64,000 nucleotides of DNA from Clostridia bacterium. Lineage in GTDB: Bacteria; Bacillota; Clostridia; Oscillospirales; CAG-272. Location: NCBI GenBank assembly GCA_017450945.1, contig JAFSSP010000007.1, positions 28,487-92,486 on the forward strand. Direction: 5' to 3'. The position numbers were made by a program, and so were the translations under genes. How positions within the stretch are numbered: position 1 is the stretch's first letter; every line of letters begins with the position of its first letter. The notes beneath the pieces are model-generated. The model did not search any database and had not been told where the DNA came from. It saw nothing but the letters and a program-made list of their open reading frames with translations. This document shows, in pieces, positions 34,248-50,841 of this stretch.

Positions 34248-35504
34248 ATGGATCGCCTGATCTTTCACATAGACGTCAACAGCGCTTTTCTCTCTTGGGA
34301 ATCGGCGCGAAGAGTCAAAAAGGGCGAGAGCGATCTGCGGCTTGTGCCGTCGGCAGTCGGTGGCGACAGAGATCGGCGTACCGGTGTGATTTTGGCCAAA
34401 TCGATCCCTGCAAAAAAGTACGGCGTTTCAACCGGAGAGCCGGTTTCCATGGCGCTTCGCAAATGCCCAGAGCTGGTGATCGTGAAGCCGGATTTTCGTC
34501 TCTACGCGCAATGCTCCAAAAAATTCCTTGCAATTTGCCGCAAATATGCGCCGGTGGTCGAGCAGTTTTCGATTGACGAGTGCTTTCTCGACATGAGCGG
34601 AACCTCGCGCATCTATCCCGATCCGGTTGCAATCGCGCACACGATCAAGGATGAGATTCGCGACAGGCTCGGCTTTACCGTCAACGTCGGGATCGGCCCC
34701 AATAAGCTCCTTGCCAAAATGGCGAGCGATTTTGAAAAGCCCGACAAGGTGCATACGCTCTTTTTTGACGAGCTGGAGGAAAAGTTTTATCCGCTTCCGG
34801 TGCGCGATCTCTTTACGGTCGGAAGATCCACCGCAAAACTGCTCGACCGCATCAACGTGCACACCATCGGCGAACTTGCATCGCTCGATCAAAAGGCGCT
34901 TGACATCATTGTAGGCGGCAAGTTTGCAAAGCATTTGTATCTGGTTTCGCACGGTTTGGACGATTCTCCGGTTCTTGCCGAGCGCCCCGAGGCCAAAGGA
35001 TACAGCAACTCGATCACGCTCGAGGAGGACGTTACAACGGCCGAGGAGGCAGAACAGGTGTTACTTCTGCTCTCGGACAGCGTGGCAACAAGACTGCGCG
35101 CCGACAGTGTGCGAGCCTGGTGCGTCTCGGTCGTTCTGCGCTCGACCGACTTTACCGACCGGTCAAAACAAATGCGTCTGGATACACCGACCGACAATAC
35201 CGACGAGGTGTTCGACAAGGTCAAAAAGCTTTTTTTGGAGCTTTGGGATGGGGAAGACCCAATCCGCCTTTTCGGGGTTGCCGCTTTCGACGTGACGAAA
35301 GAGGAAGGCCAGCTCTCCTTTTTTGACGATCCCAAAAAAGAAAAAAGCCGCGACGTTGACGAAGTCGTCGATTCGATCCGCGAACGTTTCGGCATGGATA
35401 CCATTATCCGCGGGAGCATCTGCAAATCGCCCGTCGTCCCCGGCGGAAGACATCTGCGCCACTCCACCAAAGCGGATGGGGAAGAGAAAAACAAAAAGCA
35501 GTGA
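34248..35504 (+). CDS. dinB: DNA polymerase IV (Y family)
   Basis: HIDVNSAF, SIDECFLD, NKLLAKMASDFEKP. Confidence 0.92.
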   Translation: MDRLIFHIDVNSAFLSWESARRVKKGESDLRLVPSAVGGDRDRRTGVILAKSIPAKKYGVSTGEPVSMALRKCPELVIVKPDFRLYAQCSKKFLAICRKYAPVVEQFSIDECFLDMSGTSRIYPDPVAIAHTIKDEIRDRLGFTVNVGIGPNKLLAKMASDFEKPDKVHTLFFDELEEKFYPLPVRDLFTVGRSTAKLLDRINVHTIGELASLDQKALDIIVGGKFAKHLYLVSHGLDDSPVLAERPEAKGYSNSITLEEDVTTAEEAEQVLLLLSDSVATRLRADSVRAWCVSVVLRSTDFTDRSKQMRLDTPTDNTDEVFDKVKKLFLELWDGEDPIRLFGVAAFDVTKEEGQLSFFDDPKKEKSRDVDEVVDSIRERFGMDTIIRGSICKSPVVPGGRHLRHSTKADGEEKNKKQ

Positions 35505-35545
35505 TGGTTTTCAATCACTGCTTTTTATTATCGTAGTTTTTTTGA

Positions 35546-35707
35546 TTATTTGCGTTTGATGTCTCTGACCTGGTAGTCGGGGTATTTTGCCATAAATCTT
35601 GCCAAAGCGATGGATTCGGTTGTGGCAAAAACGTGCGTTGTACCGTGGTTGTGATAGACAACCCACATCACTGCATTCGCTTCATGAGAAGTAAATCCGT
35701 CCGGCAT
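35546..35707 (-). CDS. small hypothetical protein (53 aa)
   Basis: GGAGG RBS 8 nt before the ATG at 35707; MPDGFTSHEANAVMWVVYHNHG...; no family recognised. Confidence 0.55.
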   Translation of the reverse strand: MPDGFTSHEANAVMWVVYHNHGTTHVFATTESIALARFMAKYPDYQVRDIKRK

Positions 35708-35759
35708 GGTATGCACCTCCTGTTGTTGATCGTGATAGGACTCGAACAGGTTGAAAAAC

Positions 35760-36212
35760 TCAATCAAAGAGTCCTGTCGTATCGTTCAATAACAGACGAA
35801 CGCCTTTCAGCTTGTAAGATGGCTTTACAGCGTCATCGGAATTGTTATACGCGGTCATAGCGAGTTGCTCGGTTTTGAAATAGTAAATATGAACGCCGTC
35901 GCCGTCGTTGTTATATGCGTACAGGTATGCCTTTACCGAGCCGCTTTCCACTTTTAATGCAGCGTCGTAACCTTCCAAATACGATGTGTATTTATAAACG
36001 ATATATCCTTTTCCTTCCAGCATGGCTTTGTCGGCTTCGGCAAGATCGGCAGCCGATTGGGCGGTGCTTGTTTTTCCGCTGTTGCCGGAATTGGTTTTGC
36101 CTGCATCATTTGAGCCAATCAACTCGGTTGCATTTTTGCTTCCGCAAGCGCACAGGCCAAACAAAAGCAGAGCGGCAAGAAGAACGGTCAGAATTCTCAT
36201 CGTGGTTTTCAT
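35760..36212 (-). CDS. hypothetical lipoprotein
   Basis: Signal peptide with lipobox LCAC-G; AGGAG RBS; sigma-A promoter TTGACA-17-TATCAT at 36253-36281. Confidence 0.8.
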   Translation of the reverse strand: MKTTMRILTVLLAALLLFGLCACGSKNATELIGSNDAGKTNSGNSGKTSTAQSAADLAEADKAMLEGKGYIVYKYTSYLEGYDAALKVESGSVKAYLYAYNNDGDGVHIYYFKTEQLAMTAYNNSDDAVKPSYKLKGVRLLLNDTTGLFD

Positions 36213-36290
36213 TTTGATTTCTCCTTAATTTATTTGATTTGGTGCTAACAATATGATAGCAGGATTTTTGGGATTTGTCAACCGTGATGC

Positions 36291-36799
36291 TTAAAAAATG
36301 ACAGGATTTGAACTCTGCAATTTTCCTGCGGCGGTGCCGTTTTTTCGACGGCTGGACGCCGTCGTTTTGCAAGTAAAAACCAAAAACGGCGTCGCATTTC
36401 GGCATGGCCTATCGGTCCAAGCAAAAAGGCAAGAGCCCATAAAGAGCTCTTGCCTTTTTGGTCGGAATGACAGGATTTGAACTCTGCGAATCCACCTGCG
36501 GTGGGAGCCGTTTTTTCGACGGCTGGACGCCGTCGCTTTCACTTCGTGAAAGACCAAAAACGCCGTCGCATCTTCGCGTGTCTGTCCTTCGGGCAACAAA
36601 AGAGCTATCGGATAAACCGACAGCTCTTTCGTTGGTCGGAATGACAGGATTTGAACTCTGCGGATCGCCTGCGGCGGTGCCGTTTTTTCGACGGCTGAAC
36701 GCCGTCGCTTTGCAAGCAAAGACAAAAACGGCTTCGCATTTTCGCGTGTCTGTCGTTCCAATCAAAAAGGCAAGAGCCCATAAAGGGCTCTTGCCTGTT
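36291..36799 (-). repeat. three tandem ~170-bp structured units downstream of tRNA-Pro, each ending in a copy of the tRNA 3' end
   Basis: + strand TGGTCGGAATGACAGGATTTGAAC at 36800 (tRNA), 36633 and 36459, truncated near 36297; period 167-174 bp. Confidence 0.92.
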
Positions 36800-36875
36800 T
36801 GGTCGGAATGACAGGATTTGAACCTGCGACATCCTGGTCCCAAACCAGGCGCGCTACCAACTGCGCTACATCCCG
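36800..36875 (-). tRNA. tRNA-Pro (TGG)
   Basis: CGGGATGTAGCGCAGTTGGTAGCGCGCCTGGTTTGGGACCAGG...GGTTCAAATCCTGTCATTCCGACCA, 76 nt. Confidence 0.97.
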
Positions 36876-36890
36876 AATTTCCACGCTCCC

Positions 36891-37007
36891 ATTATAGCAG
36901 GCAAAGAAGCAAAAGTCAACAATCAAAAAGCAGTTTTTGAAAAAAGTATTTTTCCTCGAAAGTTTTTTGAAAAAAGCTCTTGACTTTTTTCTAAAATCAT
37001 GTATAAT
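36891..37007. promoter_or_regulatory. divergent sigma-A promoters for tRNA-Pro (-) and tRNA-Leu (+)
   Basis: Minus strand TTGACT-17-TATAAT (36919-36891); plus strand TTGACT-16-TATAAT (36980-37007); A/T tracts between them. Confidence 0.8.
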
Positions 37008-37045
37008 AAACCTGTTGCGCGATGATCGCGCACAAAACCATATAC

Positions 37046-37130
37046 GCGGGAGTGGCGGAACTGGCAGACGCGCACGTTTGAGGGGCGTGTGGTTCACACC
37101 GTACGAGTTCAAGTCTCGTCTCCCGCACCA
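37046..37130 (+). tRNA. tRNA-Leu (GAG)
   Basis: GCGGGAGTGGCGGAACTGGCAGACGCGCACGTTTGAGGGGCGTG..., long variable arm, ends CCA, 85 nt. Confidence 0.97.
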
Positions 37131-37470
37131 CAAAGAGGTGAATGGACAAAAGTCCATTCACCTCTTTGTATTGCATGATAATCGAACGCGAACTCGCTCC
37201 TTTTTTGCAAGGCAAAAAAGGAACAAGTGCGGCAAGATGAAGGTATGGATTTATGCTTGATTGGCGCCGCACGCTTGAGTTACAAGTCTCGTCTCCCGCA
37301 CCACAAATAGGTGGATGGGTTTTCTCATCCGCCTATTTGTTATGTGGAACGATCCTGCTTGAACTCGCTCCTTTATGCAATGCAAAAAGGAACGCGTGCG
37401 GAAAAGATATAAGTATAGACTCTTGCATGACTTTCGCCGCACGTTTGAGTTAAAAGTCTTGTCTTTCGTT
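37131..37470 (+). repeat. two ~170-bp structured units downstream of tRNA-Leu(GAG), each ending in a copy of the tRNA 3' end
   Basis: GAGTT(A)CAAGTCTCGTCTCCCGCACCA at 37277-37303; decayed copy at about 37447-37468; each unit starts with a terminator hairpin. Confidence 0.9.
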
Positions 37471-37547
37471 TTAGAAAAAACTTCACTCTTGCTTTTCGAT
37501 TCTTTTCGTGCTATAATAAGGCAGACCGATCGAAAGGGGGTGCTTTC

Positions 37548-38375
37548 ATGCGAGAAAAGGGGAATTCGGCAGAACTGCGCGATGTTAGGCTCTTTTTGTT
37601 TGACCTTGACGGCACACTGTATCTCGGCGAGCAGTTATATCCCTACACAAAGGCATTGCTTGAAGAGATCAAGCGCCAGGGAAAGCACTACCTGTTTATG
37701 ACCAACAATTCCTCGCGCGGGGTGGACGCCTACGTCGAAAAGATGAAGCGGCTCGGTATCAAAGCAACCGCCGACGATTTTATCACCAGCGTGATGGCGA
37801 CCTCGGCCTATATTTTGAAAACCTACCCGGAAAAGCTTTTTTACGTTGCCGGGACCGAGTCTTTCAAGCAAGAGCTTCGCGCGTCCGGCGTTCGTGTGAC
37901 CGACCTTTATTCGGGCGACGTTGAGGGTGTGATTCAAGGCTTTGACACCGAACTGACTTTCCAGAAACTCGACGACGTTTCCAAACTGCTGACGCTCAAG
38001 GAGATCCCGTTCATAGCCGCCAACCCGGACTTTGTTTGCCCGACCGAATACGGTTTTGTTCCGGATTGCGGCTCGATCTGCGGAATGCTGGAGAAGGCGA
38101 CCGGAAAGAAGCCCTACTACATTGGCAAGCCGCGCCCCGAGATGGTCTATTTTGCTGTGGAGCGCATTCGGGCAAAAGACTCCAAGGTCTCTCTCCAAAA
38201 CACGCTGGTTGTGGGTGATCGGATGTACACCGACATTGCCTGCGGGATCAGCGCTGGGGCAAAAACCTGCCTTGTCCTCTCGGGTGAGACGACCGAGGAG
38301 CAAGCGTATGCGTCGGACTACAAAATTGACTATATTCTAAAGGATTGCGAGCGGATCCTTGAGGCGATCCGGTAA
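37548..38375 (+). CDS. HAD-IIA family hydrolase (NagD-like)
   Basis: FDLDGTLY, TNNSS, GKP, VGDRMYTDI. Confidence 0.92.
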   Translation: MREKGNSAELRDVRLFLFDLDGTLYLGEQLYPYTKALLEEIKRQGKHYLFMTNNSSRGVDAYVEKMKRLGIKATADDFITSVMATSAYILKTYPEKLFYVAGTESFKQELRASGVRVTDLYSGDVEGVIQGFDTELTFQKLDDVSKLLTLKEIPFIAANPDFVCPTEYGFVPDCGSICGMLEKATGKKPYYIGKPRPEMVYFAVERIRAKDSKVSLQNTLVVGDRMYTDIACGISAGAKTCLVLSGETTEEQAYASDYKIDYILKDCERILEAIR

Positions 38376-38384
38376 GGTGAAAAG

Positions 38385-38747
38385 ATGAAAGAAAAATTCA
38401 AAAACGCTTTCAAAAAAGCCATACAGTTTCTCTTGAATCCGCGTTTGCTCCTTTGCTGTGGAATCGCGTGGTTCATTACAAACGGCTGGTCGTACGTGAT
38501 GTTCGGAATCGGGACTTACTTTCAGATCGGTTGGATGATCGCAGTCGGCGGGGCATACCTGACTTTCCTTTGGTTGCCGATCTCACCCGAAAAGATTGTG
38601 ACCGTGGCGATCGCCATCGGGCTTTTGAAACTGTTGTTTCCCAAGGATGAGAAAACGCTTGCCGTTCTGAAGGAAATGTCACAAAAGGTAAAGAACACGG
38701 TCAAACGGAAGAAGAAGCAAAAGGGAAGAGGGCAGGTTGCAGAGTGA
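38385..38747 (+). CDS. hypothetical membrane protein
   Basis: ORF with hydrophobic segments (AWFITNGWSY, LWLPISPEK) and a basic tail. Confidence 0.75.
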   Translation: MKEKFKNAFKKAIQFLLNPRLLLCCGIAWFITNGWSYVMFGIGTYFQIGWMIAVGGAYLTFLWLPISPEKIVTVAIAIGLLKLLFPKDEKTLAVLKEMSQKVKNTVKRKKKQKGRGQVAE

Positions 38748-38748
38748 G

Positions 38749-38970
38749 ACGGTAGCCGGATTCGTGAGCGGAGTTTGCGGCTTTATTTCAAAGTGTTCCG
38801 GATACTCGCCTTCGGCGAGAGTGTTTCATAGATTGGGGTGGCCGGATTCGTGACCGGATTTTGCTCCGCAAGCGAAGCAAAGTGACGTTTTTTGCAAGAC
38901 AAAAAACGTCGGTCGATCCTCACCTGACCACCAAGCAAAACAGGCGACTCCCGGTGGGAGTCGCCTGTTT
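38749..38970 (-). repeat. two structured units downstream of tRNA-Gln with copies of the tRNA 3' end
   Basis: + strand TGGGGTGGCCGGATTCG at 38975 (tRNA) and 38834; decayed GGTAGCCGGATTCG at 38751; terminator at 38937-38971. Confidence 0.82.
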
Positions 38971-39045
38971 TGGCTGGGGTGGCCGGATTCGGACCGACGA
39001 ATGCCAGAGTCAAAGTCTGGTGCCTTACCGCTTGGCTACACCCCA
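38971..39045 (-). tRNA. tRNA-Gln (TTG)
   Basis: TGGGGTGTAGCCAAGCGGTAAGGCACCAGACTTTGACTCTGG...CACCCCAGCCA, 75 nt. Confidence 0.96.
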
Positions 39046-39104
39046 ATATTCACAAACAACAGTATTATAGCACAAAGCAAAATGACTGTCAATAGATTTT
39101 TGAT

Positions 39105-39137
39105 AGAAAAAGGCGTCGCCCGGCGACGCCTTTTTCT
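39105..39137 (-). terminator. intrinsic terminator of the der-obgE-rluA-DUF3810 cluster
   Basis: Palindrome AGAAAAAGGCGTCGCC-C-GGCGACGCCTTTTTCT. Confidence 0.8.
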
Positions 39138-39141
39138 GCTA

Positions 39142-40251
39142 TTATTTTGCAACGATATTTTCCGCTTTGAAGTAGGCTACCGCCAGATCCACCACAAGAT
39201 TATAACTGCGGGTTCCGGCTTTTGCGCCTTGAGATTTGAGATAGGTGTCATTGACAAAATCGTTGACGGTTGCCAAATTGCTGTTTTGGTATGGCTTGAA
39301 GAATTCCGCATAGGCAGCTTCCTCTTTTTGAACCGTTTCGGGAAGGATTCTCAAAAGCATGGAATAATACTCGGGATTGGTTTCATACATGGCGTTCATC
39401 ATATATTCCCAAAGGCTCAGCGCAGCACTATAGCGAATATAGGTGTCCTCGCTGTTCATGCATACCAGGTAGGCGACAAAATTTGCCTCGTCCTCTCTTG
39501 CGATTCCTCTTTGATGCGCCAGTTCATGGGCCATGGTAAATGGAAGCGTATAGTCGGGGAAATCGGTATTTACATTTGCTTCTCCTGTGGGAAAAGAGTA
39601 AATCCCGGTGATGTGGGAATAGGAAAGCAATTTGCTTGCAAACACAGGCTTGACTCTGGAATAATAAGTGCTTAAAAAATCATGATCCTTTGCAAAATCC
39701 TCGTATGCGGTAAGGAGCTTTTCGTTGAGTTCGTCAAAGGAATAGGGCATGATCGTGGCCCCGCTCTGTCCGGAAACCAGATCATATGAAAGATCCTTTA
39801 GTTCATCGGTCAAATACAGCGTTGAACGAAGCAGATCCACTTCTAAGACCGGTTCGCGATCCAGCTCCAGCTTTTTTTCGATCCCGCTTCCGCGGTATCC
39901 GGGCGCAAAGGTCCAGACAAAGAGGCAAAAGATGACGCAAACTCCGGAAAACAGCCGCAAAAGATAGGAGCTGAGGCGCCGGGAGCTTTTGACATAGCGG
40001 ATCGCTCCGAATACCAGAGCCGCAAACGCGACCGGAAGTGAGAGCACAAGCCATTCTCCGATCGAGAAGGGAAGAATCGAAGAGATTTTTGCCAGAACAT
40101 GACGCAAAAACTGCGCAATGCTTTGATTGAAGGCATCGGAAAACTCCGGAAAAAAGCAGAACACCAGGTACAGACCGAGTGAAAAAGCAGTTACAGCCCA
40201 GAGGATACTGCCCAAAACGAGAAAGACGGTATTTCGTTTGACTTTATTCAT
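39142..40251 (-). CDS. DUF3810 family membrane-anchored putative zinc metalloprotease
   Basis: PFSIGE, GIYSFPTGEANVN, AHELAHQRG..REDEANF. Confidence 0.88.
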   Translation of the reverse strand: MNKVKRNTVFLVLGSILWAVTAFSLGLYLVFCFFPEFSDAFNQSIAQFLRHVLAKISSILPFSIGEWLVLSLPVAFAALVFGAIRYVKSSRRLSSYLLRLFSGVCVIFCLFVWTFAPGYRGSGIEKKLELDREPVLEVDLLRSTLYLTDELKDLSYDLVSGQSGATIMPYSFDELNEKLLTAYEDFAKDHDFLSTYYSRVKPVFASKLLSYSHITGIYSFPTGEANVNTDFPDYTLPFTMAHELAHQRGIAREDEANFVAYLVCMNSEDTYIRYSAALSLWEYMMNAMYETNPEYYSMLLRILPETVQKEEAAYAEFFKPYQNSNLATVNDFVNDTYLKSQGAKAGTRSYNLVVDLAVAYFKAENIVAK

Positions 40252-41188
40252 GAAAAGTCTCCTTATAGCATGGTTCGAGTTCAAAATCATTTCCAAAACA
40301 CTTTTTTGCAAAGTTGGAAAAATCGGCAGGCGGCGGTGCCAAAACAGTCAGGCGTTCCTTGGTCGTCGGATGCGGAAAAGAAATGCGCAGAGCGTGCAGG
40401 GCATGCCGTAAAATACTTTCGCTTGGAGTTCCGTAAAGATCGTCTCCGGAAATCGGAAAGCCGTGGTGTGCAAACTGAACTCTCAGTTGATGCGTTCTGC
40501 CCGTGATCGGTCGCGCAAGGACTAAGGTGTGTCTCTCGCCCCGAAAAAGCACCCAAAACTCGGTTTTTGCAAACTCGGCGCCGGGAGCATCTTTTTCGCA
40601 GACCTCGCGCAAAATGATGCTTTTTTCGGTTCTGTGAAGATAGTCGCAAAGCGTTCCGGCATCCTCGCTCAGAACGCCGTCCAGAATGGCCAAGTATTCT
40701 TTGGAGAACTCGCCTTTTTGCAGGGATTTTGCCATTCTTCCGGCAGAGAGCCGATTCTTTGCCACCACCAAAAGACCGCTGGTATTGCGGTCGAGGCGGT
40801 TTACCGGGCGAAAGACGTAAGGAGTCCCGCATTCCCGGTAGCGGTAGGCAAGCGCGTTTGCAACCGTATCAAAATGGTGATCGCAGGAAGGGTGCGTCGG
40901 CATGTTTGCTGGCTTTGACGGCACGACGAGATCTTCGTCCTCGTATAGGATTGTAAGCGGAAGATCGACAGGGTCGATCCTCTCCTCGGCCTCTGCGTCG
41001 TCAAGCGCGATCGAGAGCCTGTCGCCCTCCTGCAGAATGGCACGGACGGTTACATGGGAGCCGTTGAGCAAAATCCCATCCTCGCGGAATTTGACCGAGC
41101 GCAAGAGCTTTTTTGACGGATGCAATTGTTCTATGAGAAAACTCTTGAGAACTTTTCCGTCGTCTTCTTTTGCAATGAGAAACTCCAT
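40244..41188 (-). CDS. RluA family pseudouridine synthase
   Basis: NRLDRNTSG, TGRTHQLRV, GDDLYG, ALHA. Confidence 0.93.
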   Translation of the reverse strand: MEFLIAKEDDGKVLKSFLIEQLHPSKKLLRSVKFREDGILLNGSHVTVRAILQEGDRLSIALDDAEAEERIDPVDLPLTILYEDEDLVVPSKPANMPTHPSCDHHFDTVANALAYRYRECGTPYVFRPVNRLDRNTSGLLVVAKNRLSAGRMAKSLQKGEFSKEYLAILDGVLSEDAGTLCDYLHRTEKSIILREVCEKDAPGAEFAKTEFWVLFRGERHTLVLARPITGRTHQLRVQFAHHGFPISGDDLYGTPSESILRHALHALRISFPHPTTKERLTVLAPPPADFSNFAKKCFGNDFELEPCYKETFHE

Positions 41189-42468
41189 TATTTGATATAA
41201 TCAAATTCAAAACCGTAGACAGAGACGGTGTCTCCGTCCTGGCAACCCTTGGATTCCAGCAGTTCAAATACGCCGCTGCGCTGCAGAACCTTTTGAAAAT
41301 AGTTGAGCGACTCGTAGTCGGTAAAATTGATCTGTCCCATGAGATTCTTGAGCCATTCGCCTTCGAGATAGAAGGTGTTGTTCTCTCGGCGTACCGTCGT
41401 TTCCTTCCCGCCGCCAACGTAGGCGTCCTCGGGATCGTATTCGCGTTCGTAAATCCTCATGGGGGGAAGATCCAAAAGGCGTTTTGCGGTGTGATCCACC
41501 AGTTCGTCAAGCCCTTCGCCGGTGATTGCAGAAACGTAGAACAGCTCCCAGCCGTTTTCTTTTACGAAGGTTTCAAAGGCAGAAAGATCGGTGTTTTCGC
41601 GATCGAGAGAGTCCACTTTATTTGCCACGATGATCTGCGGTCTTGTTGCAAGCTCGGGGCTGTAGCGTTCCAGCTCGGTGTTGATGATCTTGATATCTTC
41701 CACAGGATCTCTGCCTTCGATCGAGGCGATATCCACAATATGGAGTAGCAGACGGCAGCGGTCGACATGACGTAAGAATGCGTGACCGAGCCCCGCGCCT
41801 TCGGAGGCTCCTTCGATGAGCCCGGGAATATCCGCGGCAACAAATCCTGTCTCACCCTTGGTGCGTACCACACCGAGGTTGGGAGAAAGGGTAGTAAAGT
41901 GATAGTCCGCAATTTTCGGCTTTGCGGCACTGATGCGGGAAAGGATCGAGGATTTTCCGACGCTCGGGTAACCGATGAGTCCTACGTCGGCAAGCATTTT
42001 GAGTTCGAGAGTCAGTTCTCTCGATTCTCCCTCGGTGCCGTTCTTTGCAAAAAGCGGAACCTGGCGCGTCGGCGTTGCAAAATGCTTATTTCCAAAGCCG
42101 CCTCTGCCGCCTTTGCAACAGAGATAGTCTGCTCCGTCGTCCTCCGACATATCGTGCAGGACTTTGCCGCTCTCAGCATCTTTGATCAGGGTTCCTGGCG
42201 GGACCAAGATCACAAGATCCTCGGCGGTAGCACCATGAAACTTGGAGCCTTTGCCGTCACCGCCGCGCGCGGCGATAAACTTGTGTTTGTAGCGGAAGGC
42301 AAGCAGGGTATTGCAACCGGGATCAACTCGGAAGACAATGTTACCGCCATGCCCTCCGTCGCCGCCGTCCGGGCCGCCAGCCGCAACGTATTTTTCACGC
42401 CGAAAAGAGACGGCACCATTGCCGCCGTCCCCGGCTTTGACAAAAATTTTGACCTGATCGACAAACAT
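41188..42468 (-). CDS. obgE: GTPase ObgE/CgtA
   Basis: MFVDQVKI, Gly-rich Obg fold, GYPSVGKS, DIPGLIEGA, NKVD. Confidence 0.98.
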   Translation of the reverse strand: MFVDQVKIFVKAGDGGNGAVSFRREKYVAAGGPDGGDGGHGGNIVFRVDPGCNTLLAFRYKHKFIAARGGDGKGSKFHGATAEDLVILVPPGTLIKDAESGKVLHDMSEDDGADYLCCKGGRGGFGNKHFATPTRQVPLFAKNGTEGESRELTLELKMLADVGLIGYPSVGKSSILSRISAAKPKIADYHFTTLSPNLGVVRTKGETGFVAADIPGLIEGASEGAGLGHAFLRHVDRCRLLLHIVDIASIEGRDPVEDIKIINTELERYSPELATRPQIIVANKVDSLDRENTDLSAFETFVKENGWELFYVSAITGEGLDELVDHTAKRLLDLPPMRIYEREYDPEDAYVGGGKETTVRRENNTFYLEGEWLKNLMGQINFTDYESLNYFQKVLQRSGVFELLESKGCQDGDTVSVYGFEFDYIK

Positions 42469-42492
42469 AAAAAGTTCCTTCCAAAAGAAGAA

Positions 42493-43827
42493 TTAGTCTG
42501 CGTCATCGCCCTTCATACGGATGATGAGTTTGATCGGCGTTCCCGAGAACCCGAAGGTCTCGCGCAGGCAGTTTTCGATATAGCGTTGATAGGAGAAGTG
42601 GAACAGTTCCACATTGTTGCAAAAGATCACAAAGGTCGGAGGTGCGACGCCGATCTGCGTCATATAATAGATTTTCAGCCTGCGGCCTTTGTCTGTGGGC
42701 GGCTGTACCCTTATCATCGCGTCGCCCAGCACGTCGTTGAGCATTCCGGTTGTCACGCGCATGACCGACTGACCGTAGACATAAAGGATTCTCTCATACA
42801 GCGTTTCTACCCTCTGACCGGTCTTTGCCGAGACGTACAGGATCGGCGCATAGGTCATATAGGCAAGCTCTGTGCGGATCTTGTTGTTGAACTCGTTAAC
42901 CGTGGAATTGTCCTTTTCGATCCGATCCCATTTGTTGACGACGATGATGGTTGCTTTGCCTGCTTCGTGCGCAATCCCGGCAATTTTGGTATCCTGGTCG
43001 GTGATGCCGGTCGTCGCGTCGATCATAAGCAGGCAGACGTTGGCGCGCTCGACCGCCATGTGCGCTCGAAGCACGCTGAAGTGTTCGATCTTATCTTCGA
43101 TCTTGGACTGGCGGCGAATCCCCGCCGTGTCGATAAAGGTGAATTTTCCATACGCATTTTCGACCTGGGTATCCACCGCGTCGCGGGTGGTCCCGGCGAT
43201 CTCGGATACGATGAGACGGTTTTCACAGAGCAGGCGATTGATGATCGAGGATTTTCCGGCATTCGGTTTTCCGATGACGGCGATTTTAATGCTGTCATCC
43301 TCTTCCTCTTCACCCACTTCTTGCTCGTTGAGCGCTTCCACACAGGCGTCGAGCAGATCACCGGTCCCGTTGCCGTGCGAGCTTGAGATGCTGATCGGAT
43401 CTTCGCGGAACCCGAGCTCGTAAAACTCGTAGAACGCCATGGGAGGATCGCCTACGTTATCGCACTTGTTGACGCAAAGAATGACCGGTTTCCCGCTTTT
43501 CTTCAGCGTTGTGGCGATTTCACGGTCGTCGGCGGTCAAGCCTGCGCGCACGTCGCAGAGAAAGACGATCACGTTTGCGCTCTCGATGGCAAGTTCGGCT
43601 TGCGCACGCATCTGAGAGAGGATGATATCGTTTGTTTTCGGTTCAATACCGCCGGTATCGACCAGGATCATTTTGCGACCGCGCCATTCGCATTCGCCGT
43701 AGATCCTGTCGCGCGTCACGCCGGGCGTATCCTCAACGATCGAGCGCCGCTCGCCGATGAGCTTATTGAAGAGGGTGCTTTTTCCCACGTTGGGGCGCCC
43801 TACAATGGCAATGATTGGTTTTGACAT
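42493..43827 (-). CDS. der: ribosome biogenesis GTPase Der
   Basis: Two GTPase domains (GRPNVGKS, GKPNAGKS) and a KH-like tail. Confidence 0.98.
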   Translation of the reverse strand: MSKPIIAIVGRPNVGKSTLFNKLIGERRSIVEDTPGVTRDRIYGECEWRGRKMILVDTGGIEPKTNDIILSQMRAQAELAIESANVIVFLCDVRAGLTADDREIATTLKKSGKPVILCVNKCDNVGDPPMAFYEFYELGFREDPISISSSHGNGTGDLLDACVEALNEQEVGEEEEDDSIKIAVIGKPNAGKSSIINRLLCENRLIVSEIAGTTRDAVDTQVENAYGKFTFIDTAGIRRQSKIEDKIEHFSVLRAHMAVERANVCLLMIDATTGITDQDTKIAGIAHEAGKATIIVVNKWDRIEKDNSTVNEFNNKIRTELAYMTYAPILYVSAKTGQRVETLYERILYVYGQSVMRVTTGMLNDVLGDAMIRVQPPTDKGRRLKIYYMTQIGVAPPTFVIFCNNVELFHFSYQRYIENCLRETFGFSGTPIKLIIRMKGDDAD

Positions 43828-43841
43828 GGCAAATCCTTTCG

Positions 43842-45161
43842 TTATTCGTTGATTCCGAGTACCGTTCGCACAAATCCGTCGCCCGTGCAGGGGCAGGTGC
43901 GCAAATGTACTCCAAGCGCCGCTTCGAGGTCGGCGGGAGTCTTGTCATCAAGAAAGATCTCTTCGTCGGCTTTGAGCATCACAGCGGGGTAGAGGAGTTC
44001 TTCTCCGAGATCTTTTCCTTTGAGCTGCTCGATCACGTCCTGCCCGGTGATCAGCCCCGCTACCGTGACGTTCTCTCCAAAGAAGTTGTTTTTGATCTCA
44101 TAGACTGCTACTTTCAAGAGCGGGAACGCATCGGTCAATTCTTTTGCCGCTTTGCGGATCGTTCCCGCGGCGGCGACTCCCGTGATCACGGAGACTGAGC
44201 GAGGCTTTTTCAGGGCAAATCCTTCCTCTTGCAGAGCTTCTGTTTCAAATGCAAAATCGGTTTCAAAAGAGGTGATCATGCCAACGCCGTTTTCAATCTG
44301 TGAATAGTCCTCGTAGAACTCGTCATTCGGAAGCGGCACGCCGGCTTTGAGATAAAACTCGTCCGAACAATAAAACAGTCGCGTGCCGTATTGTTTCCTG
44401 CAATAGTTGCCGAAGGCGTTGACCTCGTCTAACACCGCTTTGCAGTCCTCTTTGGTAAAGGGCTCCAGCGGGTAGAGGCTGTCGCGAAATTTGGTTAGCC
44501 CCACCGGGACGACCGAGCAGGATTTGAGCGCAGGATAAAGCGAGAGAAGGTCGTGCATGGTGCGGTCGAGCTCGTTTCCATCATTGATCCCTTTGCAAAG
44601 CACGATCTGGGTGCAGAGCGAGATCCCGGCGTCGGCAAGACGACGGAGATAGGAAAGCACCTCGCCCGCGCGCTTGTTTTTCATCATTTGCACGCGAAGC
44701 TCGGGATTGGTCGTGTGAACCGAAATATTGACCGGCGAGAGGTGCATCTCGATGATGCGGTCGATGTCCTCGTCATGAAGGTTGGTCAGCGTGACGTAGT
44801 TGCCATGCAAAAAGGACAGGCGATCGTCGTCATCCTTAAAGTACAGGCTTTTGCGCAGTCCTTTTGGAAGCTGGTCAATGAAGCAGAAGACGCATTTGTT
44901 GGCGCAGGAATGCTTTTTGTCCATGAGCGCGCTGGAAAACTCAAGACCGATGTCAAAGAGGTTTTCCTGCTTGGAGAAACGGATGGTATGCTCGATCCCA
45001 TCCCTGCACACGACAAGCTCAATGTTTCGGTCGGTCATGTAAAACCGGTAGTCGAGAACGTCTCTTATCGGGTGACCGTTGATGGAAAGGAGGCGATCGT
45101 CAGCTTTGAGTCCCACGGCTTCCGCAAGCGTTTTGGGACAAACTTTTTGAATGATGACCAT
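43842..45161 (-). CDS. DUF512 family radical SAM protein with N-terminal PDZ-like domain
   Basis: CANKCVFCFIDQLP, KDDDDRLSFL.GNY, QIENGVG; AAGGAGG RBS. Confidence 0.9.
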   Translation of the reverse strand: MVIIQKVCPKTLAEAVGLKADDRLLSINGHPIRDVLDYRFYMTDRNIELVVCRDGIEHTIRFSKQENLFDIGLEFSSALMDKKHSCANKCVFCFIDQLPKGLRKSLYFKDDDDRLSFLHGNYVTLTNLHDEDIDRIIEMHLSPVNISVHTTNPELRVQMMKNKRAGEVLSYLRRLADAGISLCTQIVLCKGINDGNELDRTMHDLLSLYPALKSCSVVPVGLTKFRDSLYPLEPFTKEDCKAVLDEVNAFGNYCRKQYGTRLFYCSDEFYLKAGVPLPNDEFYEDYSQIENGVGMITSFETDFAFETEALQEEGFALKKPRSVSVITGVAAAGTIRKAAKELTDAFPLLKVAVYEIKNNFFGENVTVAGLITGQDVIEQLKGKDLGEELLYPAVMLKADEEIFLDDKTPADLEAALGVHLRTCPCTGDGFVRTVLGINE

Positions 45162-45278
45162 AAGCGCATCCTCCTTCCAATCTTTATAACATATTATTTT
45201 ACCATGTAAAGCGTAAAAAGTCAATGGAAATCAAGAAAAAGGGAAGTCCTACTTGTAAAAAAGGACTTCCCGTATCTA

Positions 45279-46157
45279 TTATTTTGTCGTTTTTGCAAGG
45301 ATTTTCTCCAGTTCGCTTGTAAGAGAAACAAACAAGGAAATATCCAATTCCTCGCCGCGCACGGTCGGTGACAACCCCATCGAGGACAGGCAGGCCGTAA
45401 TCTCCGCTTTGTCAAGTTCTGGAAAGCCCGCCGAAAGGGCATTTGCAAGAATTTTTCTGCGTTCGCCGAACGCGGCCTTGATCGTGCGGAAGAGCAGATC
45501 GGCGTTTGTATCCCGATAGGGGGATTCCCGAAAGAGTTTGATCCGCACCACCGCCGAATCGACCTTTGGTGGCGGCAGAAATTTTCCGGCAGGGACCAAA
45601 AAGAGACGTTCGGCAACTCCGTAATAGGCAAGTGCGACCGTGATCGCGCCGTAGTCCTTGCTTTTTGCCTTGGCAGAGAGGCGGTCGGCCACCTCTTTTT
45701 GCACCATGACGGTGATTGAATCAAAGGGAAGTCCGCTCTCAAGCAGCTTCATAAGGATCGGCGTTGTGATATAGTAGGGAAGATTGGCGCAAACCGAAAC
45801 CGGGCCTCGCTCGAAATCCGCTTTGAGAAGCGTGGGAAGGTCGGCTTTCATCACGTCTTCGTTGATCACTTGGACGTTTGAACAGTCGGCAAGCGTCTCT
45901 GAAAGGATCGGAATGAGTCCGCGGTCAATTTCCAGGGCGACGACCTTTTCATAGCGATATGCCAGCTCGCGCGTCAGCGTCCCGACGCCGGGGCCGATCT
46001 CAAGAATTGTGCGCTCGTGCGTCTCTCCCGCGGCGTCGGCAATGTCTTCAACGACTGTGGAATCCATCAAAAAGTTCTGCCCGAACTCTTTGCGAAAAGT
46101 TACGCCATAGGCGCTCATGAGGTCGCGCACCTGCTTTGGATTGTAAAGATTGATCAT
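45279..46157 (-). CDS. rsmA: 16S rRNA dimethyladenosine transferase
   Basis: GQNFL, EIGPG, ANLPYYITTP, PPPKVDSAVV. Confidence 0.97.
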   Translation of the reverse strand: MINLYNPKQVRDLMSAYGVTFRKEFGQNFLMDSTVVEDIADAAGETHERTILEIGPGVGTLTRELAYRYEKVVALEIDRGLIPILSETLADCSNVQVINEDVMKADLPTLLKADFERGPVSVCANLPYYITTPILMKLLESGLPFDSITVMVQKEVADRLSAKAKSKDYGAITVALAYYGVAERLFLVPAGKFLPPPKVDSAVVRIKLFRESPYRDTNADLLFRTIKAAFGERRKILANALSAGFPELDKAEITACLSSMGLSPTVRGEELDISLFVSLTSELEKILAKTTK

Positions 46158-46223
46158 CTGTTTTTCCTCGTCTTGGAGATACTGAAAAAATCATACCATA
46201 AAAAGGCCGATCTGTCAAGAACG

Positions 46224-46292
46224 ACCACTTATGCCCGAAAATCTACCACTTGGGCAAAATCTATTTACAAATCCGGCGTTCGGGATTATAAT
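46224..46292 (+). promoter_or_regulatory. LytTR operator direct repeat plus sigma-A promoter
   Basis: ACCACTTAT-N12-ACCACTTGG (46224-46253), then TTTACA-17-TATAAT (46264-46292). Confidence 0.75.
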
Positions 46293-46318
46293 GAAATCAT
46301 CAAAAGGGAGGTGATTCT

Positions 46319-46774
46319 GTGAAGCTTCGGATCGAGATCGACCCGGACGGACCGGAAGAAGTTGTCATCAAGGCAAAAGCAATCACAGAGAGCCTGCAAA
46401 ACCTGCAAACCAAGCTGGAGCGCACGCTGAACGCCTCTGGAGAGATCGCCTTAAAGAAAGGCAACGAAGAGTTTTATCTGCCTTACCGCGAGATCCTCTA
46501 TTTTGAGACCGAAGGGAAGTCGGTAACGGCTTACACCAAGGACGAGGCCTTTCAAACCGCTCTGCATCTGAACGAGCTTTCCTTGCTTTTGCCAAAATCC
46601 TTTACGCGGGCTTCCAAGAGCTGTATTGTCAACACGGCAAAAATCTGCTCGATTGTGCGCAGCCCGACCGGGGTCAGCGTCGCCCGCTTTTCGGGAAGCG
46701 ACAGCATCCTCTATATTTCCAGAAAGTATTATCACGTCGTGCGTGAGATCATTGAAGAAACGAGGTTAAACTAA
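46319..46774 (+). CDS. stand-alone LytTR family transcriptional regulator
   Basis: MKLRIEID..EEVVI, ILYFET, FTRASKSCIVN, ISRKYY. Confidence 0.9.
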   Translation: MKLRIEIDPDGPEEVVIKAKAITESLQNLQTKLERTLNASGEIALKKGNEEFYLPYREILYFETEGKSVTAYTKDEAFQTALHLNELSLLLPKSFTRASKSCIVNTAKICSIVRSPTGVSVARFSGSDSILYISRKYYHVVREIIEETRLN

Positions 46775-46775
46775 C

Positions 46776-47495
46776 ATGGCAAACTGCAAAAACAAATCCT
46801 GCGATAAAAAACGCTATCAAGCGATCTTTTGGGGCCTTGTCCTCATCCTTGCCGCCGCGGTCCTCATTCTGGACGGCGTTGGCGTAGCCCTTGCTCCCGG
46901 CTTTACCCCATGGAGAATCATCGGCAGAGTATTGCTCCTTGCCTGGGTGGTCTACGAGATCGTTCGTCTGAAATTTGCCGATATCTTTTTCCCACTTGCT
47001 CTCTTGTTCTTACTTTTCAAAGATCCGCTTGCCGATCTTCTTAGCTGGAACAAAGAGAAGATTCCGAAAGCATGGATCATCCTGCTTGCGGCGATCCTCA
47101 TCAGCATCGGTCTTCACATCATTTTTGACCGCAAGAAAACCGTTTATGTCAACGGCGTAAAGGTGGAAAACGAAAAAATCGGCGTTGGAAAGATGGGGAA
47201 AGAGACCTTTTATGCCGACGCGGCCGATCTCTCCGGATACACCATCAAGGATCATCTCGGCGCGGTGGAGCTGTTTGTCACCAACAAAGAATCCTATGTG
47301 GGAAGCGGCGTTATCACGATTTGCGATAATCTTGGTCTTGTGACCCTGCATTTGCCGGGAGATTGGAACGTCTTGACCCAGTGCAGAGACAACCTCGGTA
47401 CCATCTCGGTTCCCGAACATGAAGCGACGGGCGAGAAGAGCATTACCCTTGACGTTTACGATAATCTTGGGAAGGTTGAAGTGAAGTTTGAGTAA
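46776..47495 (+). CDS. LiaF-like membrane protein, probable inhibitor partner of the LytTR regulator
   Basis: IFWGLVLIL, about 4 TMs, C-terminal beta-repeat domain; begins 1 nt after the LytTR stop. Confidence 0.72.
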   Translation: MANCKNKSCDKKRYQAIFWGLVLILAAAVLILDGVGVALAPGFTPWRIIGRVLLLAWVVYEIVRLKFADIFFPLALLFLLFKDPLADLLSWNKEKIPKAWIILLAAILISIGLHIIFDRKKTVYVNGVKVENEKIGVGKMGKETFYADAADLSGYTIKDHLGAVELFVTNKESYVGSGVITICDNLGLVTLHLPGDWNVLTQCRDNLGTISVPEHEATGEKSITLDVYDNLGKVEVKFE

Positions 47496-47496
47496 A

Positions 47497-47697
47497 AGTT
47501 AGATAGGACTTGAACTCTGCACAAGTGCGCTTTTCAATCTGCAAAAACTTTATAGCTATTTAGCGCACGAGACGTTTTTCTCGACGGCTGAACACCGTCG
47601 TTTTGCAAGCAAAAACGAAAAACGTCGGTGCGATTCTGCGTATCCATCAGAAGACTCAGAAAAAGTCGGGAGCCCCCAAGGGACTCCCGACTTTTTC
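47497..47697 (-). repeat. single ~200-bp structured unit downstream of tRNA-Leu(TAG)
   Basis: Terminator at 47658-47698; module 47571-47626 nearly identical to the tRNA-Pro units; partial tRNA 3' copy GATAGGACTTGAAC(T)CTGCACA at 47502-47523. Confidence 0.85.
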
Positions 47698-47782
47698 TGG
47701 TGCTCCTGACAGGACTTGAACCTGCACACCTTGCGGTATTGGATCCTAAATCCAACGTGTCTGCCAATTCCACCACAGGAGC
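47698..47782 (-). tRNA. tRNA-Leu (TAG)
   Basis: GCTCCTGTGGTGGAATTGGCAGACACGTTGGATTTAGGATCCAA...CAGGAGCACCA, 85 nt. Confidence 0.97.
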
Positions 47783-47910
47783 GTATTTCTTTTGCCATTA
47801 TAGCGATTTTTTCCACATCTGTCAAGAGCGAATTTTTTGTCAATCTATTTACAAATGCGGAAAATAATGTTATAATATCAAAAAGTGTACTTTTTGAAAG
47901 GACGGACGAC

Positions 47911-49680
47911 ATGAAAAAGAACCTCAAAACGCTGGTGGAACGTACAAACGCGGAACGCCCGCAGTGCCTTGTGGACATGAACGAGATCGATCTCATCGAA
48001 GCGTCCGGCATGGTTGCAGACCTGCGCCATAAAAAGAGCGCGCATCTGGCCGCACTCTGGAAGCTCGATCAGAGAGAGACGGTCCTTATCCCAATGGGCG
48101 GTTCCGACCTCGAAGGCTTTTCACAGCTGACTTTCTGGATCTTTTGCGAAAGAGCAGTCGGCTCTGTGATCCGCATGCTGTTTGACACCACACCCGAGGG
48201 CAAAGGCGAGGCCGGATATGTTGCCGACATCCCGCTGACCAAAAAAGGATGGAACCACGTCTCTCTTGCCATGCTACAACTGCCGTCCACAGGAGACGCC
48301 AGAAGCTGGAACTATGTTTCCAACATTCGCCTGACGCGCGTCAAAGGTAGAAAACTCGAGGGAGCCGCACTCTATCTCGACAGTTTCTTCCTTTGGGAAA
48401 ACACCTCTCCTGCGGCCTATGAACTGATTCCGGATTTGCACCGCGCCATCGTTTTCTCGGAGCGCGGAGCCTTCTCGCTCGTTCGCGGAAAAAGGATTCC
48501 CAATGCGCCTTTCGGTGGCGATCACTCGCCCGAAATCAATCCAAAAACCGGGGAATACTGGGTGCCGCTCTCTCCGATCGTGGCAGGATTTGTCCGCACG
48601 TCCGAGGCGGATTCCAAGCGGAAATCGCTTGCCTTTACCTATCGCAATCACTCCTACGTTTTCCTTGCCGGGACTCCGGCAGCCCGCGTGGACGGCGCGG
48701 TGAAACCGCTGAAATTTGCGCCTGCAGAGCAGGGCGGGGGACTATATGTTCCGATCTCCTTTGCGGCAGAATTTTTCGGCAGGAAATTCATCCTCGAAGA
48801 GGGCGGGCTCCTGGTACTTTCCAACCGCAAAACCTGGTTCTTAAAATCGGGGGAAGCCCTTCGCAGAGAGATCCTGGCGGCAACAACCTTCCCGAGCGTC
48901 AACTGCGAGGAGATCATCGAACAGCTTCGCACCAAGTTCTTCTCTCCCGGAAAAACGAGACTCCTGTTCTCCAAGGAAGAGGTTGGACGCCTGCGCAAAT
49001 CGCTCAAAGCAGATGAAAAACTGCGCGAGGCTGTCTCTGCTTTGGAGCTCGATGCGGCCAACACAAAAGAGATTCCTTCCAACCGCCTGCTTGCGCTCTC
49101 GCTCTCCTATCTTGCCACCGGCAAAAAGAAGCTGCCCGAAGCCATCAAGGTGCAGTTTGGAAACGTCTCGCTCAATATTGACAATGATCTTGCAAAATTC
49201 GGGCATTCTTCCTACGCGATTGCCATGGCCTATGATGCCTCCAAGGGTGTGCTGACCGAGGCCGAAAAAGCGGTCATGGAGCGCAAGCTCATTCGTTCCT
49301 GCCTGCGTCCCGGGCTTTCCTACTTTAACGGAAAACGTGCGACCGCGTCGCTCGACAGCCTTGGTGCTGCGGCATTGGCCTGTGGTATGACGGCTTGTGC
49401 GCTGGTCATGGCGGATACCTATCCCGAGACCGCGAAAAAGCTCTTGGAAAAGAGCCTGGAGCATCTCAAAGCCTGCTTCCTTGCTTCCAAGCCGGACAAA
49501 GAGGGAAGACTCGACCTTCTTCTCGGAACGCGTGCGCTTGACGTTGCACTGGAGACCACCTACGGTTGCGCGGCGCTTCCCGGCGTCAAGGAAGATTATG
49601 CGGCACTCTTCAAAGATGCAAGCGAGAATCCCGCAGAATCTTTTGTAAAGCTTTGCGCCCGTCTTTTCCCAAGCGAATAA
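47911..49680 (+). CDS. hypothetical multidomain protein (CBM-like, amine-oxidase stalk-like and helical lyase-like domains)
   Basis: DLEGFSQLTFWI...KGWNHVSL...LYLDSF; ARVDG...APAEQGGGLYVPISFAAEFFG; AIAMAYD...LTEAEK. Confidence 0.6.
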   Translation: MKKNLKTLVERTNAERPQCLVDMNEIDLIEASGMVADLRHKKSAHLAALWKLDQRETVLIPMGGSDLEGFSQLTFWIFCERAVGSVIRMLFDTTPEGKGEAGYVADIPLTKKGWNHVSLAMLQLPSTGDARSWNYVSNIRLTRVKGRKLEGAALYLDSFFLWENTSPAAYELIPDLHRAIVFSERGAFSLVRGKRIPNAPFGGDHSPEINPKTGEYWVPLSPIVAGFVRTSEADSKRKSLAFTYRNHSYVFLAGTPAARVDGAVKPLKFAPAEQGGGLYVPISFAAEFFGRKFILEEGGLLVLSNRKTWFLKSGEALRREILAATTFPSVNCEEIIEQLRTKFFSPGKTRLLFSKEEVGRLRKSLKADEKLREAVSALELDAANTKEIPSNRLLALSLSYLATGKKKLPEAIKVQFGNVSLNIDNDLAKFGHSSYAIAMAYDASKGVLTEAEKAVMERKLIRSCLRPGLSYFNGKRATASLDSLGAAALACGMTACALVMADTYPETAKKLLEKSLEHLKACFLASKPDKEGRLDLLLGTRALDVALETTYGCAALPGVKEDYAALFKDASENPAESFVKLCARLFPSE

Positions 49681-49684
49681 AAGC

Positions 49685-49714
49685 AAAAGCGGAGGAATTT
49701 TCCTCCGCTTTTTT
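49685..49714. terminator. bidirectional intrinsic terminator
   Basis: AAAAGCGGAGGA-ATTT-TCCTCCGCTTTT. Confidence 0.82.
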
Positions 49715-50717
49715 AATCTTTTCGTTTGGTTTCGGCCAATGGATTTTGCTCCATGGCGCGCTCCATGGCCTGGTTGCTGACGTGGGTATAAATTTGCGTG
49801 GTGTTGAGCTGTTCATGACCGAGGATCTCTTTGAGCACGCGCACGTCAACATGACCCGATTGATACATGAGTGTTGCGGCCGTGTGCCGGAGCTTGTGAA
49901 CCGAATAGTGTTTGGATTCAAGCCCTGCAAGCTTCAAATACTTATAGACCATCGCCTGGATCGTTTTGACGCTCATGCGCTGGTCAAGACGGCTGAGAAA
50001 GAGCGCGCGATCCTTGACGTTTGCGTATTTGGGGCCTTTGCGCTCGACAAGATAATCCGAGAGCGCAGTTCTGCAAGCATCGTTGAGATAGATGATGCGT
50101 TCCTTGTTGCCTTTACCGACCACACGCATCGAGAGCAGATTGGAATCAAGATCGTTGAGGCTTAGTCCTGCAAGCTCCGAGACACGCATGCCGCAGTTGA
50201 GAAACAAGGTTAAAATGGCGTAGTCGCGCAGACGATAAGGGGAGTCTTTATCCTCTTCGACAGCACGGAGAAGGGCAAGAGACTCTTCCAGTGTCAGCAC
50301 CTTCGGCAAGCTCTTTTTCGGCTTTGGGGCATCAATATCGGCCGTTGGATTGTCCTCAAGATAATGCTTTTTGTTGACGAGATATTTGTAAAAGGATTTG
50401 AGTGCCGAGAGCTTTCTTGCGCGAGCAGACCAGGCGTTTGCACGCTCGCGGTTGGCGTAGTAGAGGAATTCGTAAATATCGTCGGCCGTGATTTTTTTGA
50501 TCTCCTCGAGATCCACGCCGCGAACGTCGATATTTTCAAACTCTTCCGAGTTGTAGTCGATCCCTTTTTTGCTTGCCAGAATAAAGCGAAAGAAGGTGCG
50601 CAGATCAAACTGGTATTCCTGCACGGTCTTTGGGGAACAGCCCTGGATGGAGGATTTGTAGGAAATGTATTCCTGAATGAGCGGCGAGAACTCCGCCGGT
50701 GAAATCATGTTTGACAT
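49713..50717 (-). CDS. xerC: tyrosine recombinase, XerC-like
   Basis: RDYAIL, GMRVSEL, GKGNKER, HKLRHT, LGHEQLNTTQIYTH; AAGGAGG RBS. Confidence 0.85.
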   Translation of the reverse strand: MSNMISPAEFSPLIQEYISYKSSIQGCSPKTVQEYQFDLRTFFRFILASKKGIDYNSEEFENIDVRGVDLEEIKKITADDIYEFLYYANRERANAWSARARKLSALKSFYKYLVNKKHYLEDNPTADIDAPKPKKSLPKVLTLEESLALLRAVEEDKDSPYRLRDYAILTLFLNCGMRVSELAGLSLNDLDSNLLSMRVVGKGNKERIIYLNDACRTALSDYLVERKGPKYANVKDRALFLSRLDQRMSVKTIQAMVYKYLKLAGLESKHYSVHKLRHTAATLMYQSGHVDVRVLKEILGHEQLNTTQIYTHVSNQAMERAMEQNPLAETKRKD

Positions 50718-50841
50718 TCGATCCCTCCTTCCTTGCAATCATTATACACCAAGTCTTACGTTTTGGGAAGATTTTTTTGAAAAAATCCTTGCAAAAGACA
50801 GCGTGATTCGCTATAATAAAGAGCGAAAGGAGCGTGATGAA

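Follow-up and report, generated by a model that had tools for sequence, protein, structure and literature searches.

Transfer RNA (tRNA) genes are classic landing sites for mobile DNA, and several of the repeats described beside them bear on the case presented here. The RtT (rttR) repeats of the Escherichia coli tyrT-tyrV locus (RF00391) are tandem 178-bp units behind a tRNA gene, with an exact copy of the tRNA 3' end that includes the CCA; in E. coli K-12 the copy is 19 nt long, the locus has four of them, and the copy is preceded at a distance of a few bases by a short GC hairpin. To our knowledge these repeats are still unexplained after 45 years. Integrase-driven islands leave direct repeats of tRNA 3' parts (att fragments) that bound inserts, sometimes with cargo, and by accretion (CIME) such arrays grow beside the tRNA. 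Our subject is a 64,000-nucleotide stretch, the window, of the genome of a Clostridia bacterium from the gut (assembly GCA_017450945.1, contig JAFSSP010000007.1, positions 28,487 to 92,486 of the forward strand), in which ARAGORN called four tRNA genes, Pro-TGG, Leu-GAG, Gln-TTG and Leu-TAG, each with one to three partial copies of its 3' end downstream, and in which every one of those copies carries a single extra base within the T-arm. The copies belong to small, hairpin-rich repeat modules found behind many tRNA genes of this bacterium and its relatives, a poorly understood kind of tRNA-linked repeat. The reading that we favour, tentatively and with somewhat less than even confidence, is that the extra nucleotide marks the seam at which a protein-less, enzyme-orphan repeat module, ruled by a hairpin, is joined to a tRNA-identical block.

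The original prediction had named eight positions for the extra base, and direct reading of the sequence found it at all of them: 36657, 36483, 36314, 47516, 37282, 37452, 38851 and 38765. For the minus-strand tRNAs the base is a T on the plus strand, i.e., an A in the tRNA sense. The further claim that identity to the parent tRNA resumes on the far side, for 4–7 nt in the intact copies, was also borne out, the matching stretches being 5, 6 and 4 nt for Pro, 5 for Leu-GAG, 5 for Gln-TTG and 7 for Leu-TAG; two of the eight copies (Leu-GAG at 37452 and Gln at 38765) are decayed. As tandem units at four tRNAs, the eight copies have to be counted as four independent cases and not as eight events, but with a chance of about 0.001 per junction, by our inference, for an A that precedes 4 or more matching bases, a random origin is still negligible. 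The T-loop is the break point both here and in rttR, and at these junctions its breakage is a consequence of the additional nucleotide.

In the tRNA sense, a unit runs from a terminator through an inverted copy of the tRNA 3' end, variably decayed, to one or more REP-like hairpins, a GC-rich hairpin (H), a linker, the tRNA-identical block and the next terminator. The linker, of about 8 nt, opens with a T and closes with the one extra nucleotide, and the 6 nt or so between them match the tRNA sequence immediately 5' of the junction; the tRNA-identical block runs from the junction to the CCA. The features of the window are as follows.

36800..36875, minus strand: tRNA-Pro(TGG), parent of three downstream units (ARAGORN; Rfam tRNA, 71 bits)
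36633..36657, minus strand: Pro copy 1, a 24-nt block identical to tRNA positions 53-76 (36633-36656) with the extra base at 36657 (BLAST, inspection)
36459..36483, minus strand: Pro copy 2, a 24-nt identical block with the extra base at 36483 (BLAST, inspection)
36297..36314, minus strand: Pro copy 3, the outermost, a 17-nt block cut off within the acceptor strand, with the extra base at 36314
36332..36750, minus strand: the two-hairpin 'core' of the three Pro units, at 36675-36750, 36504-36581 and 36332-36407 (nhmmer, E 1e-19 to 1e-22; coordinates converted from contig C29)
37046..37130, plus strand: tRNA-Leu(GAG) (ARAGORN, Rfam)
37227..37303, plus strand: right end of Leu-GAG unit 1, with hairpin H (37227-37233 pairing with 37266-37272), a 10-nt linker whose last base is the extra A at 37282, and a 21-nt tRNA-identical block (37283-37303)
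37440..37470, plus strand: Leu-GAG unit 2, decayed, with the extra A at 37452
38971..39045, minus strand: tRNA-Gln(TTG) (ARAGORN, Rfam)
38834..38851, minus strand: Gln copy 1, a 17-nt exact block with the extra base at 38851, 9 nt downstream of a hairpin
38748..38765, minus strand: Gln copy 2, decayed, with the extra base at 38765
47698..47782, minus strand: tRNA-Leu(TAG) (ARAGORN, Rfam)
47502..47644, minus strand: the single Leu-TAG unit, with a core (47569-47644) homologous to the Pro cores, hairpin H (47525-47568), a 9-nt linker whose last base is the extra base at 47516, and a truncated 14-nt block (47502-47515) with one mismatch

The remainder of the genome was covered by a census in which the last 40 nt of every tRNA were compared by BLAST with the whole assembly (1.47 Mb in 31 contigs, 84% complete, with 38 tRNA calls by ARAGORN) and the matches were inspected. 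At 8 of the 13 loci with same-sense copies of a tRNA 3' end, an additional A is followed by 4–8 further matching bases. Four of the eight lie outside the window (Arg-ACG, Gln-CTG, Ser-CGA and Arg-CCG), and in all four TTCGAAT has become TTC-A-GAAT. The prediction that every copy would carry the A therefore held within the window, at 8 of 8 copies, but failed for the genome as a whole, where the other five loci lack the added base. Within the arrays there is a gradient of decay, copies near the tRNA being perfect and those far from it decayed or truncated. In the contigs of four DNA runs, which are too fragmented over the arrays to reveal their structure, the one notable joint is a skip of one 177-bp Leu-GAG unit in one run, at the low depth of 2.8. 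The Ser-CGA and Arg-CCG modules are homologous and about 75% alike by eye, and as a comparison for recent copying they do not let the ends of the element be read. Two of the tRNA calls deserve separate mention. The tRNA-Trp gene at C31:21804-21879 has, as called, a T·T mismatch and a G·T pair in its T-stem (GTGGG/CCTTC), and an uninterrupted copy of the T-arm lies 170 nt downstream; the present 3' half of this gene may have been swapped in. The 91-nt 'tRNA-Leu(GAG)' called by ARAGORN at C25:67092-67182 has neither a CCA nor the T-loop consensus and is thus probably a false call.

Relatives provided a far larger sample. In a set of 78 genomes of the genus, one per species, the 12-mer GGTTCAGAATCC produced 130 matches in 49 genomes, often in tandem with a period of 150–200 bp, and its reversed control produced none. 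From a sample of loci that is biased by the +1 search pattern through which it was fetched, 27 of 30 were in module context and three look like chance matches in coding sequence. Versions of the 12-mer with a base other than A also occurred, with 55 matches for +T, 29 for +C and 28 for +G against 7 for the reversed controls, and among the fetched matches (16 loci) the hairpin-TTTG context of the modules surrounded 22 of 22 with +T, 3 of 7 with +C and 0 of 4 with +G. In the closest species (G023), the orthologous Arg-ACG copy has a T in place of the A of our genome (G000), the A is kept at Pro and in unit 1 of Leu-GAG, and the outermost Pro copy ends at the same truncation point. Because +T is found in the same context, orthologues in sister species included, the feature has to be restated as one additional nucleotide, mostly A; the expectation that A would be the base was right for the commonest form but A is not obligatory. 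When the A and T versions of the 12-mer were sought in 200 other genomes of the order, there were 57 matches in 41 genomes (control, 7); the variant is therefore concentrated in the genus. In the Leu and Pro copies of relatives the extra A (in one case CA) separates positions 52 and 53; relatives also have a class of copies with a different rearrangement of the T-loop and no added base. The block itself tracks the resident tRNA across species: in relatives it fits each species' own variant, e.g., CGTACG, CCTACG or CCTATG for Ala-GGC.

These results bear on the plainest of the alternatives, that the base arose by random decay or is an artefact of alignment at the end of homology. It is true that only 4–8 bases match past the insertion and that a quarter of the window copies, two of eight, are decayed. 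Set against this are the 130 pattern matches in 78 genomes with none for the reversed control, the recurrence of one layout at eight tRNAs of a single genome, and the conservation of the A between species at Leu-GAG and Pro, and we give this explanation practically no credence. The insertion is non-random, as had been proposed, recurring across many tRNAs and many species, and it is a feature of the junction and not of decay.

What appears to set the position of the extra base is hairpin H. Of 73 unique copies, most of them fetched by the +1 pattern, 52 have a hairpin of at least 6 bp whose end is 7–10 nt short of the junction, the spacing being 8 nt in 36; in a wider set, 77 of 94 copies have the hairpin-to-junction distance. 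The spacing holds for junctions between tRNA positions 52 and 53 (Leu-TAG, and L007 and L012 of relatives), 55 and 56 (Leu-GAG and Gln-TTG), and 56 and 57, and as one distance is found at three junction positions of the tRNA, the base appears to be placed by the module and not by the tRNA. The stems of H differ in sequence and pairing is kept. The extra base thus seems to be placed by distance from hairpin H; its presence is conserved and its identity is only biased (A > T > C). The two-hairpin core is found in the Pro, Leu-TAG, Arg-ACG, Ser-CGA, Trp and Arg-CCG units and also away from tRNAs. Core copies distant from any tRNA 3'-end copy were seen at C1:25816-25964, in the first 150 nt of both C19 and C20, and at C21:10994-11069; some of these strays are tandem and some are at contig ends, so the assemblies seem to break on them.

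A hairpin at a set distance from an end, if that holds here, would be reminiscent of single-strand transposons. In elements of the IS200/IS605 type a fixed distance separates a subterminal hairpin from the element end, 10 nt for the right end of IS608. REP, BIME and REPIN sequences (with RAYT) and miniature elements derived from IS200/IS605 (PATEs) share with our modules short, GC-rich intergenic hairpins with compensatory change. The genome, in its 84%-complete assembly, has no Y1/RAYT, TnpA or TnpB, the genus shows no association with Y1, and elements of the REP and PATE types, unlike the modules, carry no copy of the end of a neighboring gene.

The inverted copies introduce a second structural theme, and with it the strongest of the rival explanations. 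At 11 or more of 36 scored tRNA calls in the genome, an inverted copy of the 3' end lies 31–46 nt past the CCA, directly after the terminator in the cases of Val-CAC, Ser-GCT, Ser-CGA, Arg-CCG and Trp. At these five, T-stem and acceptor strands are retained in the inverted copies and the T-loop is deleted or replaced. As observations in their own right, the terminator of these at least 11 genes (on contigs C3, C6, C7, C8, C14, C16, C17, C23, C29 and C31) is nested in a longer palindrome; the inverted copy comprises the last 11–20 nt of the tRNA, CCA included, and resembles a primer-binding site; and at Val and Trp it stops exactly at tRNA position 57.

The units could encode, or form part of, a functional tRNA-linked RNA like RtT, in which a T-arm mimic with acceptor strand and CCA would supply a tRNA-like 3' end for processing or stability; selection would have favoured the added base for keeping the mimic from being treated as a real T-loop. 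The layout of E. coli tyrT/rttR is the same, with tandem units, the last 19 nt of the tRNA with CCA, and a GC hairpin just upstream. There is a terminator after every complete copy here, the hairpins stay paired despite change in sequence, and in the inverted copy of Arg-ACG, 11 of 16 pairs are Watson-Crick, 4 are G·U and none is A·C, i.e., changes mostly keep the pairing. The T-loop is altered in nearly all direct and inverted copies and the T-stem strands are often retained; in addition, the units are about 80% conserved between species. Against a functional RNA stand the strong terminators that separate the tRNA from each unit, the decay of the inverted copies at many loci and the drift of the extra base among A, T and C. 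No Rfam family, RtT included, matched at E values up to 1, and in the scan of window positions 35500–48500 only the four tRNAs and sub-threshold microRNA noise were returned. The commonest class retains only 3 bp of the T-stem, and there is another class, in relatives, that retains none, from which it follows that the T-arm hairpin is not conserved across classes and is not the conserved element.

The likeness to rttR itself also has its limits. In K-12 (NC_000913, 1286709-1287328; L090), each 178-bp unit reads as a partial copy of tRNA-Tyr that extends from the variable arm to the CCA. In that unit the 5' half of the T-arm is also present, about 77 nt away, as though a hairpin-rich insert of that length had split the T-loop after GGTTCGA, which differs from the modules; there is no added base with continued identity and no match to the modules in sequence or structure, and rttR is a single E. 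coli locus, compared with at least 13 tRNAs in our 1.47-Mb genome. A functional RNA seems to us a rather unlikely explanation, albeit the main rival.

The modules could also be ordinary attR or attL leftovers of tRNA-integrating elements, from decayed islands or CIME-like accretion, with the extra base a property of attP or a locking mutation. Blocks of 17–24 nt that begin within the T-arm and extend to the CCA do resemble att cores of the T-loop class, a class reportedly recognized by Williams in 2002. As with such islands, arrays build up beside the tRNA, and direct repeats of tRNA 3' parts bound cargo: a 7-kb defence island lies between two tRNA-Met modules of about 300 bp outside the window (C2:68-7470, L043), with genes for a RiboL-PSP HEPN protein, GmrSD, a Schlafen-like helicase and a split HipA with a helix-turn-helix protein (HipBA); G023 has a 2.7-kb insert between two Arg-ACG copies; and relatives have five loci where the tRNA and its copy are separated by small genes or an IS3 transposase. 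DUF6273 proteins and proteins of unknown kind are also among the cargo. In two relatives, small genes of the 23S-rRNA-intervening-sequence protein family (PF05635) were seen between tRNA-Trp and a +A copy (L055 in G052 and L058 in G061). An N-terminal integrase remnant even persists beside a tRNA-Met(CAT), 340 bp after the gene, where a 129-amino-acid frame (C5:41271-41444, L111) has only the SAM-like N-terminal domain and is probably what is left of an integrative element that has decayed.

The genuine articles look different, however. Integrase-bearing elements in the genus adjoin tRNA-Pro(GGG), Met, Cys and Ser-GCT, and the two distal att copies of Pro(GGG) that could be found, in two species, are 46–47 nt long, start in the anticodon loop, have no indel and are accompanied by arm-type repeats without the hairpin-plus-8 layout. 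Their T-arm is intact, a comparison relevant to the original suggestion that the added base may prevent re-use of a copy in integration. As these true att copies are long and uninterrupted and the module blocks are broken by an added base, the base belongs to the modules and not to tRNA fragments in general; the units, moreover, have no integrase, and it is the hairpin that rules their junction. No recombinase was found in any cargo segment examined (the C2 island, the loci of relatives and the G023 insert), and the one PF00589 protein of the assembly is Xer-like. A single integrase family could not serve eight or more different tRNAs, and for tyrosine recombinases an extra base within the crossover region would block strand exchange. 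Taken with the cargo, this leaves att leftovers an improbable source.

That one tyrosine recombinase is encoded in the window itself (49713-50738, minus strand, 341 amino acids), 2 kb from tRNA-Leu(TAG), and its proximity invites the suggestion, akin to the integron analogy first raised for these copies, that the resident Xer-like enzyme uses a folded single-strand site, of the integron attC or CTX-type Xer kind, in which the extra base would be extrahelical or a spacer. Such a site, like integron attC, would be defined by structure and have unpaired bases, and the extra A of the Pro and Leu class would form a one-base bulge in an otherwise intact T-stem. In the commonest class (56/57), though, the base is in the loop or linker outside the hairpin and not in a helix, the best matches of the recombinase are XerC and XerD models, below their cut-offs, and its scores against integron-integrase models, 94.7 and 63.8 bits, are far under the respective cut-offs of 265 and 435. 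An integron integrase is lacking, as is any cassette-like array of genes. The attC-like proposal has no support, and a folded recombination site of either kind is very improbable.

Several further candidates were considered and set aside. Avoidance of TTCGAA restriction sites does not fit Pro, Leu or Gln-TTG; stops of reverse transcription at modified bases would have to account for three different positions, and there is no reverse transcriptase; scars of P-nucleotides or target duplication are not supported by a base that is not templated by its neighbors; and for a TnpB-style guide RNA there is no effector, and the intact tRNA would be self-targeted.

The explanation that we favour, a hairpin-ruled module joined at a seam to a tRNA-identical block, could be accounted for by a structure-guided joining process. 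The junctions would be made by nicking and ligation, or by template switching, at a distance gauged from the hairpin as at the ends of single-strand transposons. The process would target the T-arm and would restore the tRNA with the copied 3' end, and the added base would break both the T-loop and contiguous homology with the live gene, persisting, we suppose, because it is harmless. If the enzyme is absent from this genome or unrecognised in it, the present copies are probably inherited relics and their tandem duplicates. A more specific version, which we regard as possible though rather unlikely, is an undescribed, gene-less and hairpin-guided insertion module that targets the tRNA T-arm, restores the gene by its copied 3' end, bears a 1-nt offset from its terminal hairpin that marks the junction and hides it from re-targeting, and owes its mobility to an unrecognised enzyme acting in trans or to replication and repair in the host. 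At the level of abstracts, no account was found in the literature of copied tRNA T-arms with a one-base insertion.

A number of observations weigh against this explanation. The five same-sense loci without an added base are Met-CAT, Leu-CAA, Trp, Ser-GGA and a decayed Arg-CCT; of these, Met-CAT has two copies in which the T-loop is swapped for a 6-nt sequence, the Leu-CAA and Trp copies have no indel, and in the Ser-GGA copies upstream identity is absent or the loop is replaced. Most copies with a measured hairpin distance were fetched by the +1 pattern itself, and constancy among them may be common descent; the informative part is the agreement across classes, of which there are only about five. 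The mismatches in hairpin H, 25 G·T versus 12 A·C, are too weak a bias to decide between a single-strand and a duplex function. No enzyme was found for the modules: Y1 transposase, reverse transcriptase and TnpB were not found in the 84%-complete assembly (PF01797, PF00078, PF07282 and PF01385; the single PF07282 match, at 20.6 bits, is under the cut-off), and among the genus, 11 of the 18 genomes of 78 with a Y1 transposase also have the +A pattern, the same rate as the 49 of 78 overall. No pair of filled and empty sites was seen, the comparison with G023 having failed because synteny is broken at Leu-TAG and Gln-TTG, and the boundaries of insertion are accordingly inferred. Lastly, units are about 80% identical between species, higher than the 68% DNA identity of a neighbouring protein gene, which could reflect selection for a function.

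Whatever process makes them, the modules do not fit the biology of integrases: they are gene-less, lie behind a third of the tRNAs in a 1.5-Mb genome, and are found on either side of defence islands and other cargo. Their junction rule, i.e., a hairpin, an 8-nt linker, one added nucleotide and a tRNA-identical block, constitutes a searchable signature, which can be used for a census of modules, for following gain and loss events in strain-resolved data, and in the hunt for the process or enzyme responsible. The modules may, in addition, help in understanding the RtT repeats of E. coli, with which they share their layout.

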